DNA of 64,000 bases from Eubacteriales bacterium (GCA_045541915.1 JAZQJZ010000039.1:13253-77252), one strand, 5' to 3'; counted from the stretch's first letter, positions 10,079-45,485 are shown. The notes: generated by a model not told the origin, from the sequence alone. Translations and numbers: made by a program.

Positions 10079-11635
10079 ATGGAATTGACACAGATCGAAA
10101 TCATCTTGTTGATTTTGGTTGCTGTTATGACACTGGTGATCGGTTTCTTCTGCGGTATGGTGTACCGCAAGCGCATTGCGGAAAAGAAAATCGGAACCGC
10201 CGAGGGTCAGGCTGTCAAAATCGTCGAAGAAGCGCGCCGTGCCGGCGAGCAAAAGAAAAAAGAACTTCTTCTGGAAGCAAAGGAAGAAGCCCTGAAAAAC
10301 AAGAACGAAGCAGAACGGGAAATCAAGGAACGCAGAAATGAAGTGTCCCGTCTGGAAAAAAGAGCCATCCAGAAGGAAGAAAATCTGGATCGCAAATTGG
10401 AAAATCTGGACCGCAAGGAGGAGGCTCTGGACCGCAAGCTGAAGGAAAATGAGGAAAAGGCTGCGGAATTGGAGCGTCTCTGCCAGGAAGAGATCCGCGT
10501 TCTGGAAAAGAGCGCCGGGATCACCGGAGAAGAAGCCAAGAACATTTTGTTCCAGCGCTATGAGGAGGATGCCAAGAGATCCGCCTCCATCCGCTTCCAG
10601 GAAATCGAACAGGAATTGAAGGAAAATGCCGAGGCGAAGGCAAGAGAGCTGATCACCGGCGCCATCCAGCGCATCGCCGCCAACCACGTGACGGAAGCCA
10701 CCGTTTCTGTGGTTGCCCTGCCCAATGACGATATGAAGGGCAGACTGATCGGTCGCGAGGGAAGAAACATTCGCACCATCGAGACTCTCACCGGGGTGGA
10801 TCTGATCATTGACGATACCCCCGAAGCCATCACCCTTTCCAGCTTTGATCCCATGCGTCGCGAGGTGGCAAAGCTCACCATTGAAAAATTGATGACCGAC
10901 GGGCGCATTCATCCTGCCCGCATTGAAGAGACCGTGGAAAAATCCCGCAAGGAAGTGGAAAGCACCATCAAGAGCGAGGGTGAGCAGGCAGTTCTCTCCT
11001 GCGGCATCCACAGCATGAACTCCGAATTGATCCGCCTTCTGGGCAGATTGAAATTCCGTACCAGCTACGGTCAGAACGTGCTGAAGCACTCTATTGAGGT
11101 GTCTTACATTGCCGGTATGATCGCAGACGAATTGGGAGTGGATCCCGCCCTGGCACGCAGAGCCGGTCTGCTTCACGATATCGGTAAGGCCTTAAGCCAT
11201 GAGGTGGAGGGCAGTCACACCCAGATCGGTGCTGATATTGCCAAGAAGTACCGTGAAAACCGCGATGTGATCCATGCCATCGAAGCCCACCATAACGATG
11301 TGGAGCCTCAAACCCTGGTGGCAGTGATCGTCCAGGCGGCCGATGCGGTTTCCGCAGCCCGTCCCGGCGCCAGAAGAGAAAATCTGGAATCTTATATCAA
11401 GCGGCTGCAGAAGCTGGAAGAGATCGCCAATTCCTACAACGGAGTGGAAAAATCCTTTGCCATTCAGGCCGGCCGCGAGCTGAGACTGATGGTGAAGCCC
11501 GACGTTGTCAACGATGAAAATATGGCCTTTATCGCCCACGACCTGGCACGGAAGATCGAAGCGGAGATGGAATATCCCGGTCAGATCAAGGTTCACGTGA
11601 TCCGTGAAAGCCGCGCGGTGGAATACGCCAAATAA
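10079..11635 (+). CDS. rny: ribonuclease Y
   Basis: 518 aa. N-terminal TM helix, Lys/Glu-rich coiled coil, KH domain ([12 protein letters not shown]), HD domain (LLHDIGK...HH). Confidence 0.95.
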
Positions 11636-34484: not shown

Positions 34485-34494
34485 GAACCAAAAC

Positions 34495-34527
34495 AAAAAG
34501 GAACTGCATTTTGCAGTTCCTTTTTTT
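34495..34527 (+). terminator. rho-independent terminator after nifJ
   Basis: aaaaaggaactgca-ttt-tgcagttcc followed by seven T. Confidence 0.85.
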
Positions 34528-34590
34528 GTATCCGGAAACCCCCGCGCCAGTGGCGCGATTTGGGAAAGGGGCTCCGGCAAGAAGAAAAAG

Positions 34591-34741
34591 AGAAGGCGAT
34601 TGGGTAAAGGCCAGAATTTTGGCGAAGATCCGACGGGAGGCAGGTTGCCTCCCCTACAGGGTTTGGGGAAACCGAAGTATTGTTCTTTTTCTACGGGCTG
34701 TCGAGGACGTCAGCCCCTACAGAGTTTGGGGAAATCGGGAT
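34591..34741 (+). repeat. 151-bp direct repeat, copy A (two hairpin+CCCCTACAGrGTTTGGGGAAA subunits)
   Basis: Aligns base-for-base with 35144-35294 with a handful of substitutions. Contains hairpins gggaggcaggttgcctccc and gggctg-N10-cagccc. Confidence 0.85.
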
Positions 34742-34801
34742 TTTTAGTGAGAGAGGCGGACAATGTAACAATCGGGTTTTTGGTACAATATCGTGGCACA
34801 T

Positions 34802-35060
34802 TTGCCTTCCCCAGTGGGGGAAGGGGACCACGAAGTGGTGGATGAGGTATGCGAAACGCCAAAACAATATTTCTTCACATAAATTCGTTCGGCGATATCG
34901 TAGGGGAGGCAATCTGCCTCCCGTTCTGCGGCAAACCACAAAACATTCTTTTTCAAATATTCCGTTCTGGCATTGTAGGGGCCGACGTCCCCGACGGCCC
35001 GCCCTGGGGCAAAAAAACCAAAATTTCTGCCAAAACCCCGTTTGGGATTTCATAGGTGCT
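34802..35060 (-). repeat. REP-like palindromic units in opposite orientation
   Basis: Contains gtaggggaggcaatctgcctccc and gtaggggccgacgtccccgacggccc, which are reverse-orientation versions of the hairpin+CCCCTAC units. Also ccttccccagtgggggaagg...ggatgaggt, the reverse of the unit at 35098-35143. Confidence 0.6.
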
Positions 35061-35143
35061 GATTCCAAAGAAGGAGAAAACAAAAACCGGGAATTTTTTG
35101 ACACCTCATCCGTCAGCCTGCACCTGCCACCCTCTCCCGCTGG

Positions 35144-35294
35144 AGAAGGCGATTGGACAAAGGTCAGAATTTTGGCGAAGATCCGACGGGAGGCAGGTTG
35201 CCTCCCCTACAGGGGTTGGGGAAACTGAAGTATTGTTCTTTTTCTACGGGCTGTCGAGGACGTCAGCCCCTACAGGGTTTGGGGAAATCGGGAT
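35144..35294 (+). repeat. 151-bp direct repeat, copy B
   Basis: See copy A. Ends 5 nt before the left palindrome of the XRE/SLOG cassette. Confidence 0.85.
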
Positions 35295-35298
35295 ATAG

Positions 35299-35337
35299 TT
35301 TTGCGCAAAAAAAGACCGGAAAAACCGGTCTTTTTTT
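35299..35337. terminator. terminator-like palindrome, left bracket of cassette 1
   Basis: ttttgcgc-aaaaaaa-gaccgg-aaaaa-ccggtc-ttttttt. Abuts the XRE stop codon at 35338-35340. Confidence 0.8.
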
Positions 35338-35679
35338 CTAATTTCCTTTGAATTGATCCATTTCCTTGAGGATTCTCATGATTCGCTCTTGATCCTCCTG
35401 GCTTTTGGCCAATAAAAACTCATAGCATTCAAGAGGCAAATTTGGCTGGGAATCACACTTTTCTCCACCAAGGTTTTCAAGTAGCTTGGAAAGAGAAACG
35501 TTTAACGAAGAAGCAATTTTTTCGATACTTTCCAAGGTGGCGTTCTTTTCTCCGCGCTCCAATTGACCGATATAGGTTGGGTGACAACCGGCAAGCTCGG
35601 CCAACTTTTCTTGACTAAAACCCAGTTTTGTTCTGTAATTTCGGATCCGTTGCCCTACAATTTTTGCTAAATCTTTCAC
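35338..35679 (-). CDS. XRE-family HTH transcriptional regulator with a ~45-aa C-terminal extension
   Basis: 113 aa. HTH_3 pattern GFSQEKLAELAGCHPTYIGQLERGEKNATL. GTG start 5 nt after a GAGGTG RBS. Confidence 0.85.
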   Translation of the reverse strand: MKDLAKIVGQRIRNYRTKLGFSQEKLAELAGCHPTYIGQLERGEKNATLESIEKIASSLNVSLSKLLENLGGEKCDSQPNLPLECYEFLLAKSQEDQERIMRILKEMDQFKGN

Positions 35680-35734
35680 AAAATCACCTCTATATTAGAG
35701 TCTATAAATATTAGCGGGAATATTCCACAGACTA

Positions 35735-35763
35735 TTGATATTGATAATTTAGAGGTATATACT
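35735..35763 (+). promoter_or_regulatory. promoter candidate for the SLOG gene of cassette 1
   Basis: TTGATA (35735-35740), 17-nt spacer, TATACT (35758-35763). The -10 overlaps the left arm of an 11-bp inverted repeat (35761-35771 / 35789-35799). Confidence 0.4.
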
Positions 35764-35814
35764 ATAAGCACCGGCGCTTTGTTTTTTTGTGCTTATAGTG
35801 TTTGAGGTGAAACA

Positions 35815-36294
35815 ATGGATCCAAAGTATACTTGTTGTGTTTTTGGTCACAGAAACATAGAGAAAAGTGAATCGTTAAGGGCGAGACTTTATTGCGTTAT
35901 GGAAGAACTGATACGGAAAGAACGGGTTGAGACTTTCCTGTTTGGGAGCAAAAGCGCTTTCAACGATCTTTGCCATGCCGTCGCAACAGAGTTGAAGGAG
36001 AAGTATCCACACCTTAAACGAATTTATGTGCGAGCGGAATATCCTCATATTAGTGAGCAGTATCAGGATTATCTTTTAGGACTTTATGAGGATACTTATT
36101 ATCCGGAAAAGATCTTGGCCTCGGGAAAAGCAGTTTACATTGAGCGCAACTATGAAATGATTCATCAAAGCCGGTTTTGCATTGTTTATTATGATGAAAA
36201 AAAGACAGCGGTCGAAGGAAAAAGCGGAACGAAAATCGCCCTCGAATACGCTATAAAAAACGGAAAACGTTTGATCTTATTGCCTTCTCTCTAA
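35815..36294 (+). CDS. DUF1273/YpsA-like SLOG-fold protein
   Basis: 159 aa. N-terminal CCVFGHRN (family pattern C.FTGHR), TFLFGSKSAF loop, C-terminal KSGTKIALEYAIKNGKRLILL (family pattern GGT...YA...GK.I.N). GAGGTG RBS. Confidence 0.6.
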   Translation: MDPKYTCCVFGHRNIEKSESLRARLYCVMEELIRKERVETFLFGSKSAFNDLCHAVATELKEKYPHLKRIYVRAEYPHISEQYQDYLLGLYEDTYYPEKILASGKAVYIERNYEMIHQSRFCIVYYDEKKTAVEGKSGTKIALEYAIKNGKRLILLPSL

Positions 36295-36296
36295 CC

Positions 36297-36336
36297 TTTT
36301 TGCGCAAAAAAAAGACCGGTTTTTCCGGTCTTTTTT
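36297..36336. terminator. terminator-like palindrome, right bracket of cassette 1 (loop inverted relative to the left copy)
   Basis: ttttgcgc-aaaaaaaa-gaccgg-ttttt-ccggtc-tttttt. Same flank and arms as 35299-35337, but the loop is ttttt instead of aaaaa. Confidence 0.8.
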
Positions 36337-36368: not shown

Positions 36369-37658
36369 TTACCAGCGGCATACGCCCAGGCCGTTTTCCA
36401 TCTGGATGGAAACGCCGTAAGGCGCGCTCATTTTGGCCAGGTCCTCCATAAAGGCAAGATCCTTTGCCGGCTGGGGCAGACCCTCCAGGTGCTTGCCCTC
36501 GCCCTTGCTTGCCTTAACGGGCATCAGAACCAGCTTGGTCAGCTTTTTGTTTTCGTCGGTTTCCCAGTAGGGGATCACCGTTTCCAGCATCCTGGGATCC
36601 TCCATCAAGCCGCGGGTAAAGCCGGCGGAGCGCTTCTCCAGAAGAGAGATGGGGGAGGAATTGGAATCCATACCGTATTTTTTGTAAAAATCCTCGGGTG
36701 CAACGGGAACCTGATACAGCTGAATGATAAAATCGCCCAGAGAATAGAAAATGGGCTTTTCCTGATATACTTCAATGGCGCGAAGCAGATGAGGACCGTG
36801 ACCCACCACCGCGTCAGCACCGGCATCGATCAGGGTGTGGCAAATGTCCTTGAGCACCTGGGGAACGGTGGTCTTATCGCTTCCCACGATCTGGTGAGCG
36901 TGAAGGGAGATCATCACGTAATCGGCGCAAAGGGAGGCTTCCCGGATGGAAGCGATGACCCGGTCCATATCTTCCTTGCTGGGGGTTGAGATCAGGTCGA
37001 AGCGGTCGCCCTTGACAAAATTCAAGGTACCGATTTCTGCCGTTCCCTCCGGCAAAAAGGGATAATAACCCTCCCGACGGGTAATGTTTTTCGGCTCGTT
37101 GATCTGGGTCTTTTCGCCGATTTCCTGCACAGTCTTGAAGGCTTCCTCGGGAACCATCAGCTTTTGGGAAATATTGATTCCGTTGATACCGGGTCTGCCG
37201 GGAATACGACGGGACATTTCGCCGGCCATCATAGCCGGAGCAAAGGAGGTGTTGATGCAAATCAGCGCTACCCGGCCGTTTTTTGTTTCCAGGTAAGCCG
37301 GCGCGGCGGCCTGGTGCAGATTCATACCCACACCGCTGTGTACCACGCCGGTACGGGACACGTATTCAATGGTTTTTTCCATACCCAGATGGTCAAAGTC
37401 CATGGCGTGGTTGTTATTGAAGGTGGTGGTGTTAAAGCCGAATTTCAGCATATCCTCCATCACTTCGGGGGTGCATCTGACGTAAGTTCCGCCGGAATGC
37501 TGGCAAGCGTAGCACTCGCCCTCATAATTGACGGTGGTTTCCAGGTTGAAAAAGCGGCAGTCACCTTGATCCAGAAAGGCCTTGATGGGAGCAAAGCCCT
37601 CGTAATCTTCGGGAAGTCTTCTTTGACAGAGAACGTCACCTACGGCTGTAAATTTCAT
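36369..37658 (-). CDS. CapA/PGA-cap family metallophosphatase-like protein
   Basis: 429 aa. GD....NLE....NNH..D.G..G pattern (AVGDVL...FFNLET...FNNNHAMDFDHLG) typical of the CapA family. Confidence 0.7.
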   Translation of the reverse strand: MKFTAVGDVLCQRRLPEDYEGFAPIKAFLDQGDCRFFNLETTVNYEGECYACQHSGGTYVRCTPEVMEDMLKFGFNTTTFNNNHAMDFDHLGMEKTIEYVSRTGVVHSGVGMNLHQAAAPAYLETKNGRVALICINTSFAPAMMAGEMSRRIPGRPGINGINISQKLMVPEEAFKTVQEIGEKTQINEPKNITRREGYYPFLPEGTAEIGTLNFVKGDRFDLISTPSKEDMDRVIASIREASLCADYVMISLHAHQIVGSDKTTVPQVLKDICHTLIDAGADAVVGHGPHLLRAIEVYQEKPIFYSLGDFIIQLYQVPVAPEDFYKKYGMDSNSSPISLLEKRSAGFTRGLMEDPRMLETVIPYWETDENKKLTKLVLMPVKASKGEGKHLEGLPQPAKDLAFMEDLAKMSAPYGVSIQMENGLGVCRW

Positions 37659-39677: not shown

Positions 39678-39684
39678 AGACCAT

Positions 39685-39719
39685 AAAAAAGAGGTGTGAG
39701 AATTCACACCTCTTTTTTT
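39685..39719. terminator. bidirectional terminator between convergent genes
   Basis: aaaaaagaggtgtga-gaat-tcacacctc-ttttttt. The MFS stop codon lies inside the 3' arm. Confidence 0.8.
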
Positions 39720-40897
39720 GTTTTCACTTTGTTTTTCTTGTCAAAGCGCAGGTTTTCCCGTTCGGTGAACAGGATCATCAGAACCACGAAAAGGGCAAGA
39801 TAGACGGGGTAAAAGGAAAGCTTTAGAGCGCCTGAAATCAAGCCGAAGATGGAAGGCGCCACGGTGCTTCCCGTATAAGCTGCCGCCATTTGAATGCCCA
39901 CAATGGCGTGGGAATTTTCCCGGCCGTAAAGGGTGGGCGTAGAGTGAATGAGCGCCGGGTAAAAGGGCGCGCCGCCTACACCGGTGATCACAAGTCCCCA
40001 AAGGGCAAGGGTACTGCTCTTGGTGGGAAAAAGAAGGAGAAAAACCCCCAAGGCCATCAGAACCACACCGCTTCGCACCATATTCCGATCTCCCACCCGG
40101 TTTGCCACAAAGCCGGAAAAAAGTCTTCCCACGGTGATGCCCAGATAAAACATGGAGGCAAAGTGGGCGGCGGTAATTTCATCCACCCCTCGCACCGAAA
40201 CCAGATAGGTGCTGGCCCAAAGACCGGCGGAGGTTTCCAATGCGCAGTAGCAGAAGAAGGCGATCATCGAGCCTTTCACTCCTTTGATCCTCAAGGCATC
40301 AAAAAAGGAAAGATCGGATTCTTCCTCCTCTCTCATTTCCTTTTTGGGAAAGGTCTTTTTCCAGAGGGGAAGGGTGAGAAACAAAAAGGCGCAAAGAACA
40401 AACTGAATGAGGGAAACGGTGCTGTATCCTACTTCCCACCCGCGGGTGGAGGAAAGGGCCCAGCCCATAATATACGGGCTGATGGTGGCGCCCACGCCCC
40501 AGAAGCAGTGAAGCCAGTTCATATGGCTGGATTTGTAATGAAGGGCCACAAAATTGTTTAAGGCGGCATCTACCGCGCCGGCACCCAAGCCGTAAGGCAC
40601 TGCCAAGAGGCACAGGGCAAGGTAGGAGGAGGCCCGGGAAAAGCCAAAGAGGGCCACGGCGGTGAGAAGAACGCTAAAGGCGGTGACCTTTTCCGTTCCC
40701 AGCTTTTTGGTGACAGAGTCGGCAAAAAGACTGGCAAAGACCGTTCCGGAAGAAATGATCATAGAAACAAATCCCGCCCAGGATAAGGGTGCGCCGATCT
40801 CCAGGGACATCACCGGCCAGGCGGAGCCCAGCAGGGAATCCGGAAGCCCCAGACTGATAAATGAAAGATAAATAATGGCAAGAAGAAGCGAATACAT
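39704..40897 (-). CDS. MFS transporter
   Basis: 397 aa, about 12 hydrophobic segments, with a central basic loop. Confidence 0.8.
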   Translation of the reverse strand: MYSLLLAIIYLSFISLGLPDSLLGSAWPVMSLEIGAPLSWAGFVSMIISSGTVFASLFADSVTKKLGTEKVTAFSVLLTAVALFGFSRASSYLALCLLAVPYGLGAGAVDAALNNFVALHYKSSHMNWLHCFWGVGATISPYIMGWALSSTRGWEVGYSTVSLIQFVLCAFLFLTLPLWKKTFPKKEMREEEESDLSFFDALRIKGVKGSMIAFFCYCALETSAGLWASTYLVSVRGVDEITAAHFASMFYLGITVGRLFSGFVANRVGDRNMVRSGVVLMALGVFLLLFPTKSSTLALWGLVITGVGGAPFYPALIHSTPTLYGRENSHAIVGIQMAAAYTGSTVAPSIFGLISGALKLSFYPVYLALFVVLMILFTERENLRFDKKNKVKTKKEV

Positions 40898-43480: not shown

Positions 43481-44650
43481 ATGGAAAAGGTACGTTACGG
43501 CATCATCGGCCTTGGAAACCAGGGCAGCACCTACAATTTGAAGATTTTTGACAGAGACAAGGTGGAAAACGGAGTGGTCACCGCCCTTTGCGATAACGAT
43601 CCGGAAAAGATCCGCATCATGAAGGAAAAGACCCAAAACCAATCCATCACCTATTTTGAAGACTATAAGGAAATGCTCGACTCCGGCCTTTGCGATGCGG
43701 TTTTAATTGAAACGCCCCATTACATTCACCCGGAAATCTCGATGGAGTGCTTCAAGCGCGGTATTCATGTGCTCTGCGAAAAGCCGGCAGGCGTTTATGC
43801 CGACCAGGTACGGGAAATGAACGAAGCAGCCGAAAAGACCAATTCCCTTTTCGGTATGATGTTCAATCAGAGAACCAATTGCAACTATCGGAAAATGAGA
43901 GAAATGGTCCTGGGCGGTGAAATCGGAGAAATTCAGAGAATCACCTGGATCATCACCGACTGGTTCCGCACTCAGACCTATTACGATTTAGGTCAGTGGA
44001 GAGCCACCTGGTCCGGAGAGGGCGGCGGCGTTCTCATCAACCAGGCTCCTCACCAGCTGGATCTGGTGCAGTGGATCATCGGTCAAAGCCCCAAATCGGT
44101 CAACGGCTTCTGCAAGTACGGACACTGGCACGATGTAGAGGTGGAGGACGAGGTTACCGCATATCTGGAATATGAAAACGGCGCCACCGGTGTGTTCATC
44201 ACCACCACCGGCGAAGCACCCGGCACCAACCGCCTGGAAATTTCCGGCACCAAGGGAAAGCTTCTCTGCGAAGGGAAGAATTTGATGTTCTATCGCAATG
44301 CCCAGGATAGCCGGGAGTACTCCAAAACCTCCCCGGAAGCCCATAAAAAGCCTGATGTGGAAGTGATCGAAGTGGAGACCGACGGCAAGAATCCCAAGCA
44401 CGCCGGCATTATCAATAACTTTACCAATGCCATTCTGGGCAAGGAAGAGCTCTTTGTGGATGGCAGAGAGGGAATCCGCGGCGTGGAGCTGATGAACGCC
44501 ATCGAATATTCCGGCTGGATGGGCGGCATCAAGGTCACCCTTCCCGTGGACGGCAAACAGTACCTGGAGGAATTGAACCGCCGCAGAGCCACCTCCCGTG
44601 TGAAGGAAAAGGTGGAGGCCAAGGTTCTGGATACCTCCAACAGCTATTAA
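43481..44650 (+). CDS. Gfo/Idh/MocA-family oxidoreductase
   Basis: 389 aa. Rossmann YGIIGLGNQG and the EKP motif in VLCEKPAG. Confidence 0.85.
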   Translation: MEKVRYGIIGLGNQGSTYNLKIFDRDKVENGVVTALCDNDPEKIRIMKEKTQNQSITYFEDYKEMLDSGLCDAVLIETPHYIHPEISMECFKRGIHVLCEKPAGVYADQVREMNEAAEKTNSLFGMMFNQRTNCNYRKMREMVLGGEIGEIQRITWIITDWFRTQTYYDLGQWRATWSGEGGGVLINQAPHQLDLVQWIIGQSPKSVNGFCKYGHWHDVEVEDEVTAYLEYENGATGVFITTTGEAPGTNRLEISGTKGKLLCEGKNLMFYRNAQDSREYSKTSPEAHKKPDVEVIEVETDGKNPKHAGIINNFTNAILGKEELFVDGREGIRGVELMNAIEYSGWMGGIKVTLPVDGKQYLEELNRRRATSRVKEKVEAKVLDTSNSY

Positions 44651-44653
44651 AAT

Positions 44654-44687
44654 AAAAAGATGTGTGGAAAATCCACACATCTTTTTT
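44654..44687. terminator. terminator-like palindrome, left bracket of cassette 2
   Basis: aaaaagatgtgtggaaaatccacacatctttttt. Identical 34-mer recurs at 45452-45485. The SLOG stop codon overlaps its T-run. Confidence 0.85.
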
Positions 44688-45138
44688 ATATTTTCTCCAG
44701 TGGAAAGCTTCCCAAGTTGATAATTTTAATGTTTTTCTTTTTTGCTTTTTCAATATAAGTGTAGGTGTTGGAAATAGGATTTTCTAAAAAGCAAACAATA
44801 AAATCAACGCGGTTCAGCATAAAATGGTTTCGTTTGGAGATTGCAAAGCGTTTTGGCGTTTTTGAAATGCAGTCGGGAAAAATGGTTTTTTGGAGGTCAT
44901 AATAAATGGAATTCTTTTTTTGATTTAAATAGGCTAACACCACCTTGATTTCAATGCTGTGTTTTTCTTCAAGGGAGCATAAAACTTCATAAGCAGTTTT
45001 GTCAAATCTTCCGTGAGTACCTACGAAAAAAGTATGAACATTTTCATTGATAATCAAATTTTCAATCACTGAAAATAAGGCTTTTCTCAAATCATCTGGA
45101 CAATTTCTATGTCCGAAAAAAGCACACGCCGCCATCAT
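44686..45138 (-). CDS. DUF1273/YpsA-like SLOG-fold protein, diverged paralogue of 35815-36294
   Basis: 150 aa. MMAACAFFGHRN, HTFFVGTHGRFD loop, C-terminal NTYTYIEKAKKKNIKIINL. GAGGTG RBS sits 2 nt upstream of the first ATG (45138-45136), so the second ATG (45135-45133) is the more plausible start. Very AT-rich. Confidence 0.55.
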   Translation of the reverse strand: MMAACAFFGHRNCPDDLRKALFSVIENLIINENVHTFFVGTHGRFDKTAYEVLCSLEEKHSIEIKVVLAYLNQKKNSIYYDLQKTIFPDCISKTPKRFAISKRNHFMLNRVDFIVCFLENPISNTYTYIEKAKKKNIKIINLGSFPLEKI

Positions 45139-45235
45139 ATCACCTCTTTTATTCCATCCATTTTAAGGGAATTCCCCTTAAAAGTCAATAAGGCATCATC
45201 CCTTAAGGCATAATTTATTAGAAGGGGTGATAAGG

Positions 45236-45448
45236 ATGTTTCATAGAATTCGCGATTTGCGCGAGGACCGGGATCTGACGCAAACACAATTGGCCCGGTA
45301 TTTGCAAATTCATCAAACAACTTATTCCGATTATGAAATTGGGAATTTGAATGTTCCCGTGGACATTCTCATCAAATTGGCAAAGTTTTATGATACCAGC
45401 GTTGATTATCTTGTGGAATTGACAAACGAAGCCAAGCCATATCGATAA
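45236..45448 (+). CDS. minimal XRE-family HTH protein
   Basis: 70 aa from ATG 45236, after a GAAGGGG RBS. HTH_3 pattern LTQTQLARYLQIHQTTYSDYEIGNLNVPVDILIKLAKFY. Confidence 0.8.
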   Translation: MFHRIRDLREDRDLTQTQLARYLQIHQTTYSDYEIGNLNVPVDILIKLAKFYDTSVDYLVELTNEAKPYR

Positions 45449-45451
45449 AAC

Positions 45452-45485
45452 AAAAAGATGTGTGGAAAATCCACACATCTTTTTT
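45452..45485. terminator. terminator-like palindrome, right bracket of cassette 2
   Basis: Identical to 44654-44687. Lies between the XRE stop (45448) and the convergent gene's stop (45496). Confidence 0.85.

Follow-up and report, generated by a model that had tools for sequence, protein, structure and literature searches.

Two small cassettes, each pairing a gene for an XRE-type helix-turn-helix (HTH) protein with a divergent gene for a protein of the SLOG superfamily, were found in a 64,000-nt stretch of DNA from a Eubacteriales bacterium (GCA_045541915.1 JAZQJZ010000039.1:13253-77252; the whole stretch is hereafter the window, and positions are counted from its first nucleotide). Both cassettes lie between two copies of a terminator hairpin, and they probably represent a mobile, repressor-controlled two-gene XRE-SLOG module, independently acquired twice, that inserts into terminators with their duplication. 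The module is ≈0.75–0.95 kb long, runs from the stop codon of the XRE gene to that of the SLOG gene and contains no transposase or recombinase; its family is found widely in Oscillospirales/Clostridia. The module occupies intergenic terminators, most often between convergent host genes, and about one quarter of the loci retain a copy of the terminator on each side.

Duplicated Terminators around the Two Cassettes

Cassette 2, separated from cassette 1 by 8.4 kb, is organized as follows:

44648–44687: left terminator copy (TAAAATAAAAAGATGTGTGGAAAATCCACACATCTTTTTT), including the stop codon (44648–44650) of the adjacent oxidoreductase gene
44686–45138, minus strand: SLOG2, open reading frame (ORF) coding for a YpsA/DprA-like SLOG-superfamily protein of 149/150 aa
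45227–45448, plus strand: XRE2, predicted minimal HTH_3 repressor (ORF of 73 aa; 70 aa from the ATG at 45236)
45446–45485: right terminator copy, 10 nt from the stop codon (45496) of the convergent DUF4838 gene

A 34-nt core (AAAAAGATGTGTGGAAAATCCACACATCTTTTTT) is present at 44654–44687 and 45452–45485, with no third copy in the window; for a match of this kind, 0 are expected in shuffled sequence. Counted from TAAAA, the full repeat is of 40 nt (97% identity) and takes in two stop codons, that of the oxidoreductase gene and that of XRE2, the latter inside the right copy. On either strand, the two copies are scored as terminators. When nt 44688–45445 (758 bp) are excised in silico, a 47-nt spacer is left, with one bidirectional terminator between the convergent stop codons of the host genes; a spacer of this length could not also hold a third, original terminator.

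A second pair of hairpins encloses cassette 1:

35299–35337: left terminator copy (TTTTGCGCAAAAAAAGACCGGAAAAACCGGTCTTTTTTT), from repeat search and flank alignment
35338–35679, minus strand: XRE1, 113-aa HTH_3 protein with a C-terminal extension (HTH_3, E = 4.5e-16)
35680–35814: control region, intergenic between XRE1 and SLOG1
35815–36294, plus strand: SLOG1, 159 aa, member of a much larger sister family (PF06908, 27.2 bits)
36298–36336: right terminator copy (TTTTTGCGCAAAAAAAAGACCGGTTTTTCCGGTCTTTTTT), from repeat search and flank alignment

The two copies have the form TTTTGCGCAAAAAAAGACCGG-loop-CCGGTCTTTTTT and align over 38–39 nt at 85% identity, with a gapped flank score of 22.5. Each window cassette begins exactly at one stop codon and ends at the other. 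In cassette 1, one copy carries the 5-nt loop inverted relative to the other (35320–35324 vs 36321–36325), and in a related locus, L031 (195–222 vs 994–1023), the loop of the flanking hairpin is likewise inverted and the stem shows a compensatory change from C:G to T:A; this is the pattern expected of intrastrand template switching in a hairpin after its duplication.

Other origins of the hairpins were considered. A metagenome scan with the hairpin of cassette 2 retrieved five unrelated matches, none of them beside a SLOG or XRE gene, so that within this collection the hairpin is no common dispersed repeat; looser relatives lie away from modules, at 39679–39725 of the window and at 11099 of locus L066. 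A hairpin carried by the element itself was discarded for most loci, where modules 81–94% identical to each other carry different flanking hairpins, and for cassette 2, given the missing space for an original terminator.

Upstream of cassette 1, after the pyruvate:ferredoxin oxidoreductase gene, a long spacer (34485–35300) contains a 152-nt direct repeat (34590–34741/35143–35294, 96% identical) and three hairpins resembling repetitive extragenic palindromes (REP), GGGAGGCA..TGCCTCCC, at 34635, 34904 (inverted) and 35188. Across the fetched loci, hairpins of this type occur at 0.22 per kb up to 300 nt from XRE-SLOG modules vs 0.009 per kb in the rest, a density ≈20 times as high. The Rfam search retrieved nothing inside either cassette, its only match in the window being a Gut-1 RNA (RF01706) at 7998–8068 on the minus strand (62.5 bits vs a gathering score of 50).

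Flanking Repeats across the Module Family

A scan of species-representative genomes led to the identification of 80 loci, with several genomes giving two loci and, in several, the two copies lying on different contigs. Nearly all the loci come from metagenome-assembled genomes of animal, mainly ruminant, guts, labelled as Acutalibacteraceae, Oscillospiraceae, Ruminococcus, Eubacteriales or just Clostridia. A divergent HTH ORF was present within 500 bp for 70 of 91 SLOG hits, and the pairing is also seen in loci of the SLOG1 family. The modules have a median length of 772 bp and a mean G+C content of 35% vs 45% in their flanks (lower in 59 of 63 cases), and the flanking ORFs are convergent at 26 of 48 loci.

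For 67 modules, the 250 nt to the left were aligned with the 250 nt to the right, and the scores were compared with a cross-locus null distribution (99th percentile 12.5, maximum 22). The score was at least 17.5 in 17 modules, exceeded the 99th percentile of the null in 20 and its maximum in 12. As a control, 432 ordinary units of one gene or a gene pair, 400–1600 bp long, were taken from the same loci (≈840 kb, a sample that is small relative to whole genomes); no unit scored above 17, the highest value being 15. In the sample examined, the duplicated-terminator signature is specific to the XRE-SLOG module family.

The flanking repeats, 20–155 nt in length, are terminator hairpins that differ from locus to locus. 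At eight loci neither copy is more than 10 nt away from the two stop codons, and at seven of these no more than 6 nt. A and T tracts beside the stop codons contain the junctions. Repeats reaching 84–155 nt, in loci L100 and L012, span several elements, that of L100, a locus of the SLOG1 family, being a decayed repeat of 84 nt. Many independent assemblies contributed the contigs, the names of which point to a k-mer of 141, so that misassembly from repeats of 30–40 nt is not expected.

Other duplicated hairpins found in the loci turned out to be REP-like arrays, low-complexity sequence made of A and T only, or, at L075 (8200–8340/11994–12130), a ≈3.8-kb tandem segmental duplication that includes coding sequence and resembled a duplicated terminator, being a different phenomenon. 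At L002 (4561–4940; the same as L017), an insertion of ≈350 bp interrupts the loop of the right flanking hairpin; its ends are imperfect inverted repeats, GCGAGACTTCTC ... GAGAGGTCGC, and it is a MITE-like element (MITE, miniature inverted-repeat transposable element). Broken SLOG genes, due to frameshifts or rearrangement, were seen at L043 (661–1333) and L031 (566–1003), which indicates that the family includes decaying copies; at L043, BlaR1/BlaI-like genes follow the 3' part of the SLOG gene and a long hairpin recurs at 246–283 and 4564–4603.

Evidence of Mobility

Two pairs of closely related modules were found in unrelated flanks, those of L050 and L055 being 94% identical in DNA and those of L079 and L080 88%. 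The homology of such near-identical modules reaches as far as the stop codon on each side and does not include the hairpins, and the only conserved end sequence of the modules is the coding end of the XRE gene. Moreover, one host gene is followed directly by modules of three subfamilies (L029, L010 and L050), which are found in both orientations. This gene (L029, 4957–5661; L010, 6471–7217; L050, 3441–4151) codes for a product of ≈235–250 aa with the motif ISHLDL and, of the three genomes, one has it on the XRE side of the module and two have it on the SLOG side; its repeated occurrence suggests a recurrent landing site. Carriage by phages or plasmids is rare, with one weak phage match and two plasmid matches. 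One of the loci (L102) is on the Ruminococcus albus 7 plasmid pRUMAL02 (194793–200236), where two paralogous genes for site-specific integrases, inverted relative to each other, enclose a SLOG homologue that has no XRE partner and no flanking hairpin repeat.

These results also bear on a stationary regulator-effector pair, to which the terminator would have been copied across later, since both module genes need one. Templated mutation of hairpins does occur, as the inverted loops of cassette 1 and L031 and the compensatory stem change in the latter illustrate. Against such an origin, the repeats do not stop at the hairpin but take in neighbouring bases and the context of the stop codons, those of L100 and L012 extend over several elements, the two copies are placed close to the stop codons in the eight loci described above, and near-identical modules sit in unrelated flanks. 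We therefore regard a stationary pair as very unlikely.

A different process could give mobility with no part played by the encoded proteins: host replication template switching or nicking at terminator hairpins would occasionally move whatever DNA lies between two terminators, and the modules would be seen as passive cargo because they are self-contained and selfish (addictive or protective). The variable repeat length, the junctions in A/T tracts next to stop codons, the lack of terminal repeats and of a recombinase in the modules, the enrichment of REP-like hairpins at the same sites and the MITE-like element in the loop of one flanking hairpin are all in accordance with it. However, a general process of this kind should leave traces elsewhere, and none of the other gene units of the control, small as it is compared with whole genomes, carries such a repeat. 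On these grounds, passive transport appears unlikely.

Two Independent Arrivals

The preliminary description of this DNA had aligned the 150-aa and 159-aa proteins by eye. SLOG2 and SLOG1 do align along their full length, at 27% identity (BLASTP, E = 6e-13), and a profile-profile comparison of the two families gave 99.7% probability (E = 5e-26), so that they are true homologues. As had also been described, each SLOG gene is divergent from a gene for a small HTH_3 protein (Pfam HTH_3, PF01381, E = 4.7e-15 for XRE2; rounded, 5e-15 and 5e-16 for XRE2 and XRE1, respectively), the version of cassette 2 being of 70 aa. The pairwise comparison of XRE1 and XRE2 showed 29% identity (E = 3e-7).

Each protein is nonetheless far nearer to proteins of other genomes than to its neighbour in the window. 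The best homologue of SLOG2 is 62% identical, within a small family of 84 homologues; SLOG1 has more than 4,500 homologues, the best of them 60–66% identical, and its relatives elsewhere are labelled SLOG family, DUF1273 or YoqJ-like. When either protein is compared with any member of the family of the other, identity does not exceed 35%. XRE2 is 73–79% identical to the XRE proteins of SLOG2-type modules in other genomes, against the 29% with XRE1. The comparison of the proteins thus indicates that the two cassettes are independent arrivals from two lineages, not the outcome of a local duplication.

Two explanations had been offered for the pair, repeated acquisition at this locus and an old duplication under diversifying selection. 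The first is favoured by the identity to proteins of other genomes, 65% for SLOG1 and ≈60% for SLOG2. According to the second, the cassettes would be paralogues derived from one ancient event in place, and it has on its side the same two-gene architecture repeated at so short a distance and the low yet significant similarity of both the SLOG and the XRE pairs. It has to face, however, the much closer relatives in other genomes, the very unequal family sizes (84 vs more than 4,500 matches), the flanking terminator repeats and operator palindromes, which are separate and different in the two cassettes, and the genes in between, which are ordinary housekeeping genes with the G+C content of the host. 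With cross-family identity at 35% or below, duplication in place is highly improbable.

Independent acquisition is accompanied by a distinct base composition. The window's two cassettes have a G+C content of 35% and 39% vs ≈50% in the flanks; along the composition profile, a trough of 0.34–0.39 covers cassette 2 (flanks, 0.48–0.56), and cassette 1 is at ≈0.40 with surroundings at ≈0.50. The local counts given earlier for cassette 2 and for the adjacent oxidoreductase gene are exact, with 15 G+C of 60 at 44701–44760 vs 36 of 60 at 44521–44580. SLOG2 is no decayed pseudogene, all of the 11 residues that are invariant in an alignment of 50 family sequences being present. Its ORF is of 150 aa, and the spacing of the ribosome-binding site is better for the second ATG, thus giving a protein of 149 aa.

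Fold and Conserved Residues of the SLOG Proteins

The assignment of the SLOG fold in the preliminary description was borne out by a structure model. The AlphaFold model of SLOG2 (predicted local distance difference test score, pLDDT, of 94.4) had its best PDB fold matches with ShosA (8zva, E = 1.3e-5, TM-score 0.69) and with DprA of S. pneumoniae and H. pylori (3uqz/4ljr, TM-score 0.65–0.71); further Foldseek matches were LOG, MCP and the SLOG domain of ThsA. Among viral folds, a phage DprA-like protein was the best match (E = 5e-8), followed by cpYpsA and DUF2493 proteins. At the level of the modelled fold, SLOG2 belongs to the SLOG superfamily.

In terms of sequence, both proteins score under the gathering cut-off of PF06908 (YpsA; 27.7 bits), with 25.3 bits for SLOG2 and 27.2 for SLOG1. 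Many homologues of SLOG1 and SLOG2 have a precomputed PF06908 match and, together with the sub-threshold scores, this makes the window proteins borderline relatives of YpsA. Neither family profile matches any PDB sequence, including that of the solved YpsA structure. A joint profile of SLOG1 and SLOG2 retrieved ≈7,800 clusters at 50% identity, and the 150 best-scoring of them are mostly single-domain proteins of ≈140–160 aa.

Invariant residues of the SLOG2 family include G9, H10, G40, G43, D46, Y70 and N104. The stretch G43-x-F-D46 is invariant in this family and the aligned columns in the SLOG1 family read S-x-F-N; the motif is GxD/E-like by appearance. The YpsA family has a GxD/E substrate-binding signature, represented by G53 and E55 in B. 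subtilis YpsA, as reported in PMC6459960. Both window proteins are basic, with isoelectric points of 9.2 and 8.5, and single-stranded DNA is bound by ShosA (PMC11961720).

Predicted Promoters and Putative Operators

In each cassette the two genes diverge from a promoter region of 90–135 nt, in which the following features were noted:

45160–45188, minus strand: promoter-like site of SLOG2, TTGACT-17 nt-TAAAAT (promoter scan, 10/12 matches)
45163–45181: palindrome TTAAGGGAATTCCCCTTAA, between the hexamers of the SLOG2 promoter, putative XRE2 operator
45189–45216: second operator-like stretch, ATGCCTTAAGGGATGATGCCTTAT on the minus strand, from DNA conservation across loci
35735–35763, plus strand: promoter-like site of cassette 1, TTGATA-17 nt-TATACT

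Further half-sites of the TTAAGGG type are contained in the stretch 45189–45216, and a weak plus-strand -10 element, CATAAT, overlapping it may be part of the XRE2 promoter. The palindrome TTAAGGG-N5-CCCTTAA is seen again in 24 of 66 related intergenic regions, where it separates the -35 and -10 elements of the SLOG promoter; other subfamilies, cassette 1 included, have other palindromes. Those of the cassette 1 control region, GGAATATTCC and TATAAGCAC...GTGCTTATA, are unlike those of cassette 2, which makes cross-repression between the two window cassettes, judging from the palindromes, unlikely. From this arrangement, we infer that the XRE protein would repress the SLOG gene and probably its own, with an operator recognition specific to each lineage.

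Proposed Mechanism and Function

On the preferred interpretation of a mobile module, insertion would take place at intrinsic terminators via a staggered or copy-choice event, thus duplicating the whole hairpin (20–155 nt). After insertion, host genes and module genes would all end at a terminator, and for this reason the event would be nearly harmless to the host. From palindromic operators overlapping both the SLOG promoter and that of its own gene, the XRE protein may keep SLOG off, with de-repression upon entry into an XRE-free cell or upon loss of XRE. SLOG itself would be a basic single-domain Rossmannoid protein able to bind a nucleotide-derived ligand or single-stranded DNA, and might act as the effector of a selfish or conflict function.

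A classical transposase is disfavoured by the variable repeat length, the junctions in A/T tracts and the lack of conserved ends. Among the proteins of both modules no transposase or recombinase was detected, searches against Pfam, NCBIfam, PHROGs and PADLOC giving HTH and SLOG-type matches only. What remains could be a staggered cut guided by structure or else a copy-choice event, driven in both cases by the host or aided by the DprA-like protein. A bolder version, which we hold to be rather improbable, is that XRE-SLOG modules form an unrecognised class of mobile elements of ≈0.8 kb, in which the DprA-like SLOG protein promotes integration into terminator hairpins during a burst of SLOG expression on entry, before XRE builds up, leaving the terminator duplicated in a geometry like that of CRISPR repeats.

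Several observations weigh against terminator-directed insertion of a mobile module. About three quarters of the 67 modules tested have no detectable flanking repeat. When related modules were compared, their ends showed neither terminal inverted repeats nor conserved non-coding sequence, and repeats ranging from 20 to 155 nt are a poor fit to a transposase with a fixed stagger. No empty site was recovered, so that insertion is deduced from the repeats alone. The closest orthologues of the DUF4838 gene (67–68% identical) have a NUDIX gene downstream and no oxidoreductase operon, the synteny being therefore different; the exact products of the oxidoreductase gene at cassette 2 and of the gene at 36369–37658, beside cassette 1, are not on record. 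A 10-bp hairpin stem, GATGTGTGGA/TCCACACATC, moreover flanks cassette 2 (44654–44687 and 45452–45485) as well as the modules of L002 (3321–3352), L013 (658–690) and L014 (6450–6482), the flanking genes of which differ and the SLOG proteins of which are only 52–59% identical; a stem shared despite different flanking genes is not predicted by a pure target-duplication model. As to function, a catalytic activity common to the two families is made doubtful by the occurrence of GxFD in one and SxFN in the other, and the SLOG proteins match no known defence or toxin-antitoxin model of PADLOC, except for a weak ThsA match of SLOG1 (E = 0.021) with no separate stretch.

The preliminary description had seen in such pairs the features of a conflict or addiction module, and this is plausible. 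A more specific proposal is a toxin-antitoxin-like or abortive-infection defence, compatible with mobility, in which SLOG would be toxic through depletion of a nucleotide- or NAD-derived metabolite or through a division block, with XRE as a transcriptional antidote. SLOG domains are present in Thoeris ThsA and in ShosTA (PMC11961720), and overexpressed YpsA blocks cell division (PMC6459960). The XRE proteins match models of restriction-modification controller proteins and of CapH (PADLOC, E = 8e-19 for XRE1 with the controller models), operator specificities are diversified and several copies occur per genome. By contrast, no partner phosphoribosyltransferase (PRTase), SIR2 or TIR enzyme and no PADLOC system match were found, the two genes are divergent and do not form an operon, the neighbours are housekeeping genes and not defence islands, and the module is rare on phages and plasmids. 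A defence role is accordingly a possibility that we advance with some doubt.

If a mobile, terminator-duplicating module is indeed involved, two genes of ≈70 and ≈150 codons would make up a self-contained unit able to spread among gut Clostridia with no recognisable recombinase, landing at the least harmful spot and rebuilding a terminator on each side, and a further mode of gene movement would be added to those known. This would also account for the small pairs of an XRE gene and an effector gene scattered between housekeeping genes, and would give a testable role to a large uncharacterised branch of SLOG proteins, that of the ≈7,800 clusters. Even with no involvement of the encoded proteins, the duplication of the terminator points to an insertion process directed to terminators. 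A literature search of incomplete coverage retrieved insertion sequence (IS) elements that target REP sequences and no description of terminator duplication by an inserted cassette.

Comparison with Known Systems

The proteins of the YpsA/YoqJ group (DUF1273, PF06908), the best Pfam match of both window proteins, are likewise single-domain Rossmannoids of ≈150–180 aa. The gpsB linkage of YpsA proper was not seen in the module loci inspected, where the neighbours are the XRE gene and unrelated housekeeping genes, and neither the N-terminal FGHR motif of the modules nor the divergent XRE partner is among the contexts of the YpsA family listed in the passages of PMC6459960 consulted. DprA (Smf) and ShosA are the best structural matches of the window SLOG protein, the window proteins being basic, but the latter consist of the Rossmann core only, lacking SAM and winged-helix domains, and identity is 12–20%. 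ShosTA (Shosta) is defined by the PRTase toxin ShosT beside ShosA, whereas the window SLOG proteins have no adjacent PRTase and no PADLOC Shosta match. In Thoeris ThsA, the SLOG domain is fused to a SIR2 or transmembrane effector and a TIR-domain protein, ThsB, is encoded nearby; SLOG1 is instead of a single domain and has no TIR neighbour.

As regards gene arrangement, type II toxin-antitoxin systems are co-directional operons in which the antitoxin neutralises the toxin, at variance with the divergent genes of the window and the promoter region between them. The controller proteins of restriction-modification systems and the CI/Cro switches of phages share with the modules a small XRE protein encoded beside its presumed target gene and palindromes overlapping divergent promoters. 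In the window, the target is a SLOG gene and no nuclease, a methyltransferase is missing and the operator role is putative.

Palindromes or terminators are targeted by group IIC introns and by Tn7, the latter at the terminator of glmS. Together with the REP-targeting IS elements (PMC1525189), they resemble the modules in preferring intergenic hairpins downstream of genes, where insertion is harmless; they rely, however, on their own transposase or reverse transcriptase and cause a short duplication or none, whereas the module has neither gene and the whole hairpin is duplicated. Phage morons, integron cassettes and pdif modules are also small, AT-rich, self-contained units placed between resident genes and bounded by hairpins. 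The module, however, lies outside a prophage, and its flanking hairpins are plain intrinsic terminators, near-perfect palindromes with A/T tracts, unique to each locus, with no conserved attC or dif core (integrases were not searched genome-wide).

In spacer integration by Cas1-Cas2, the insert ends up between two copies of a palindromic repeat of ≈30–40 bp that was single before. The likeness is confined to this geometry, as the module insert is of 750–950 bp, its repeat differs at each locus and no array, leader or cas genes are in view. Lastly, an IS element or transposon would be expected to have its own transposase and terminal inverted repeats, neither of which was found in the XRE-SLOG modules, and to leave a short target-site duplication of fixed length, whereas the direct repeats at the modules, 20–155 nt long, span the whole terminator.

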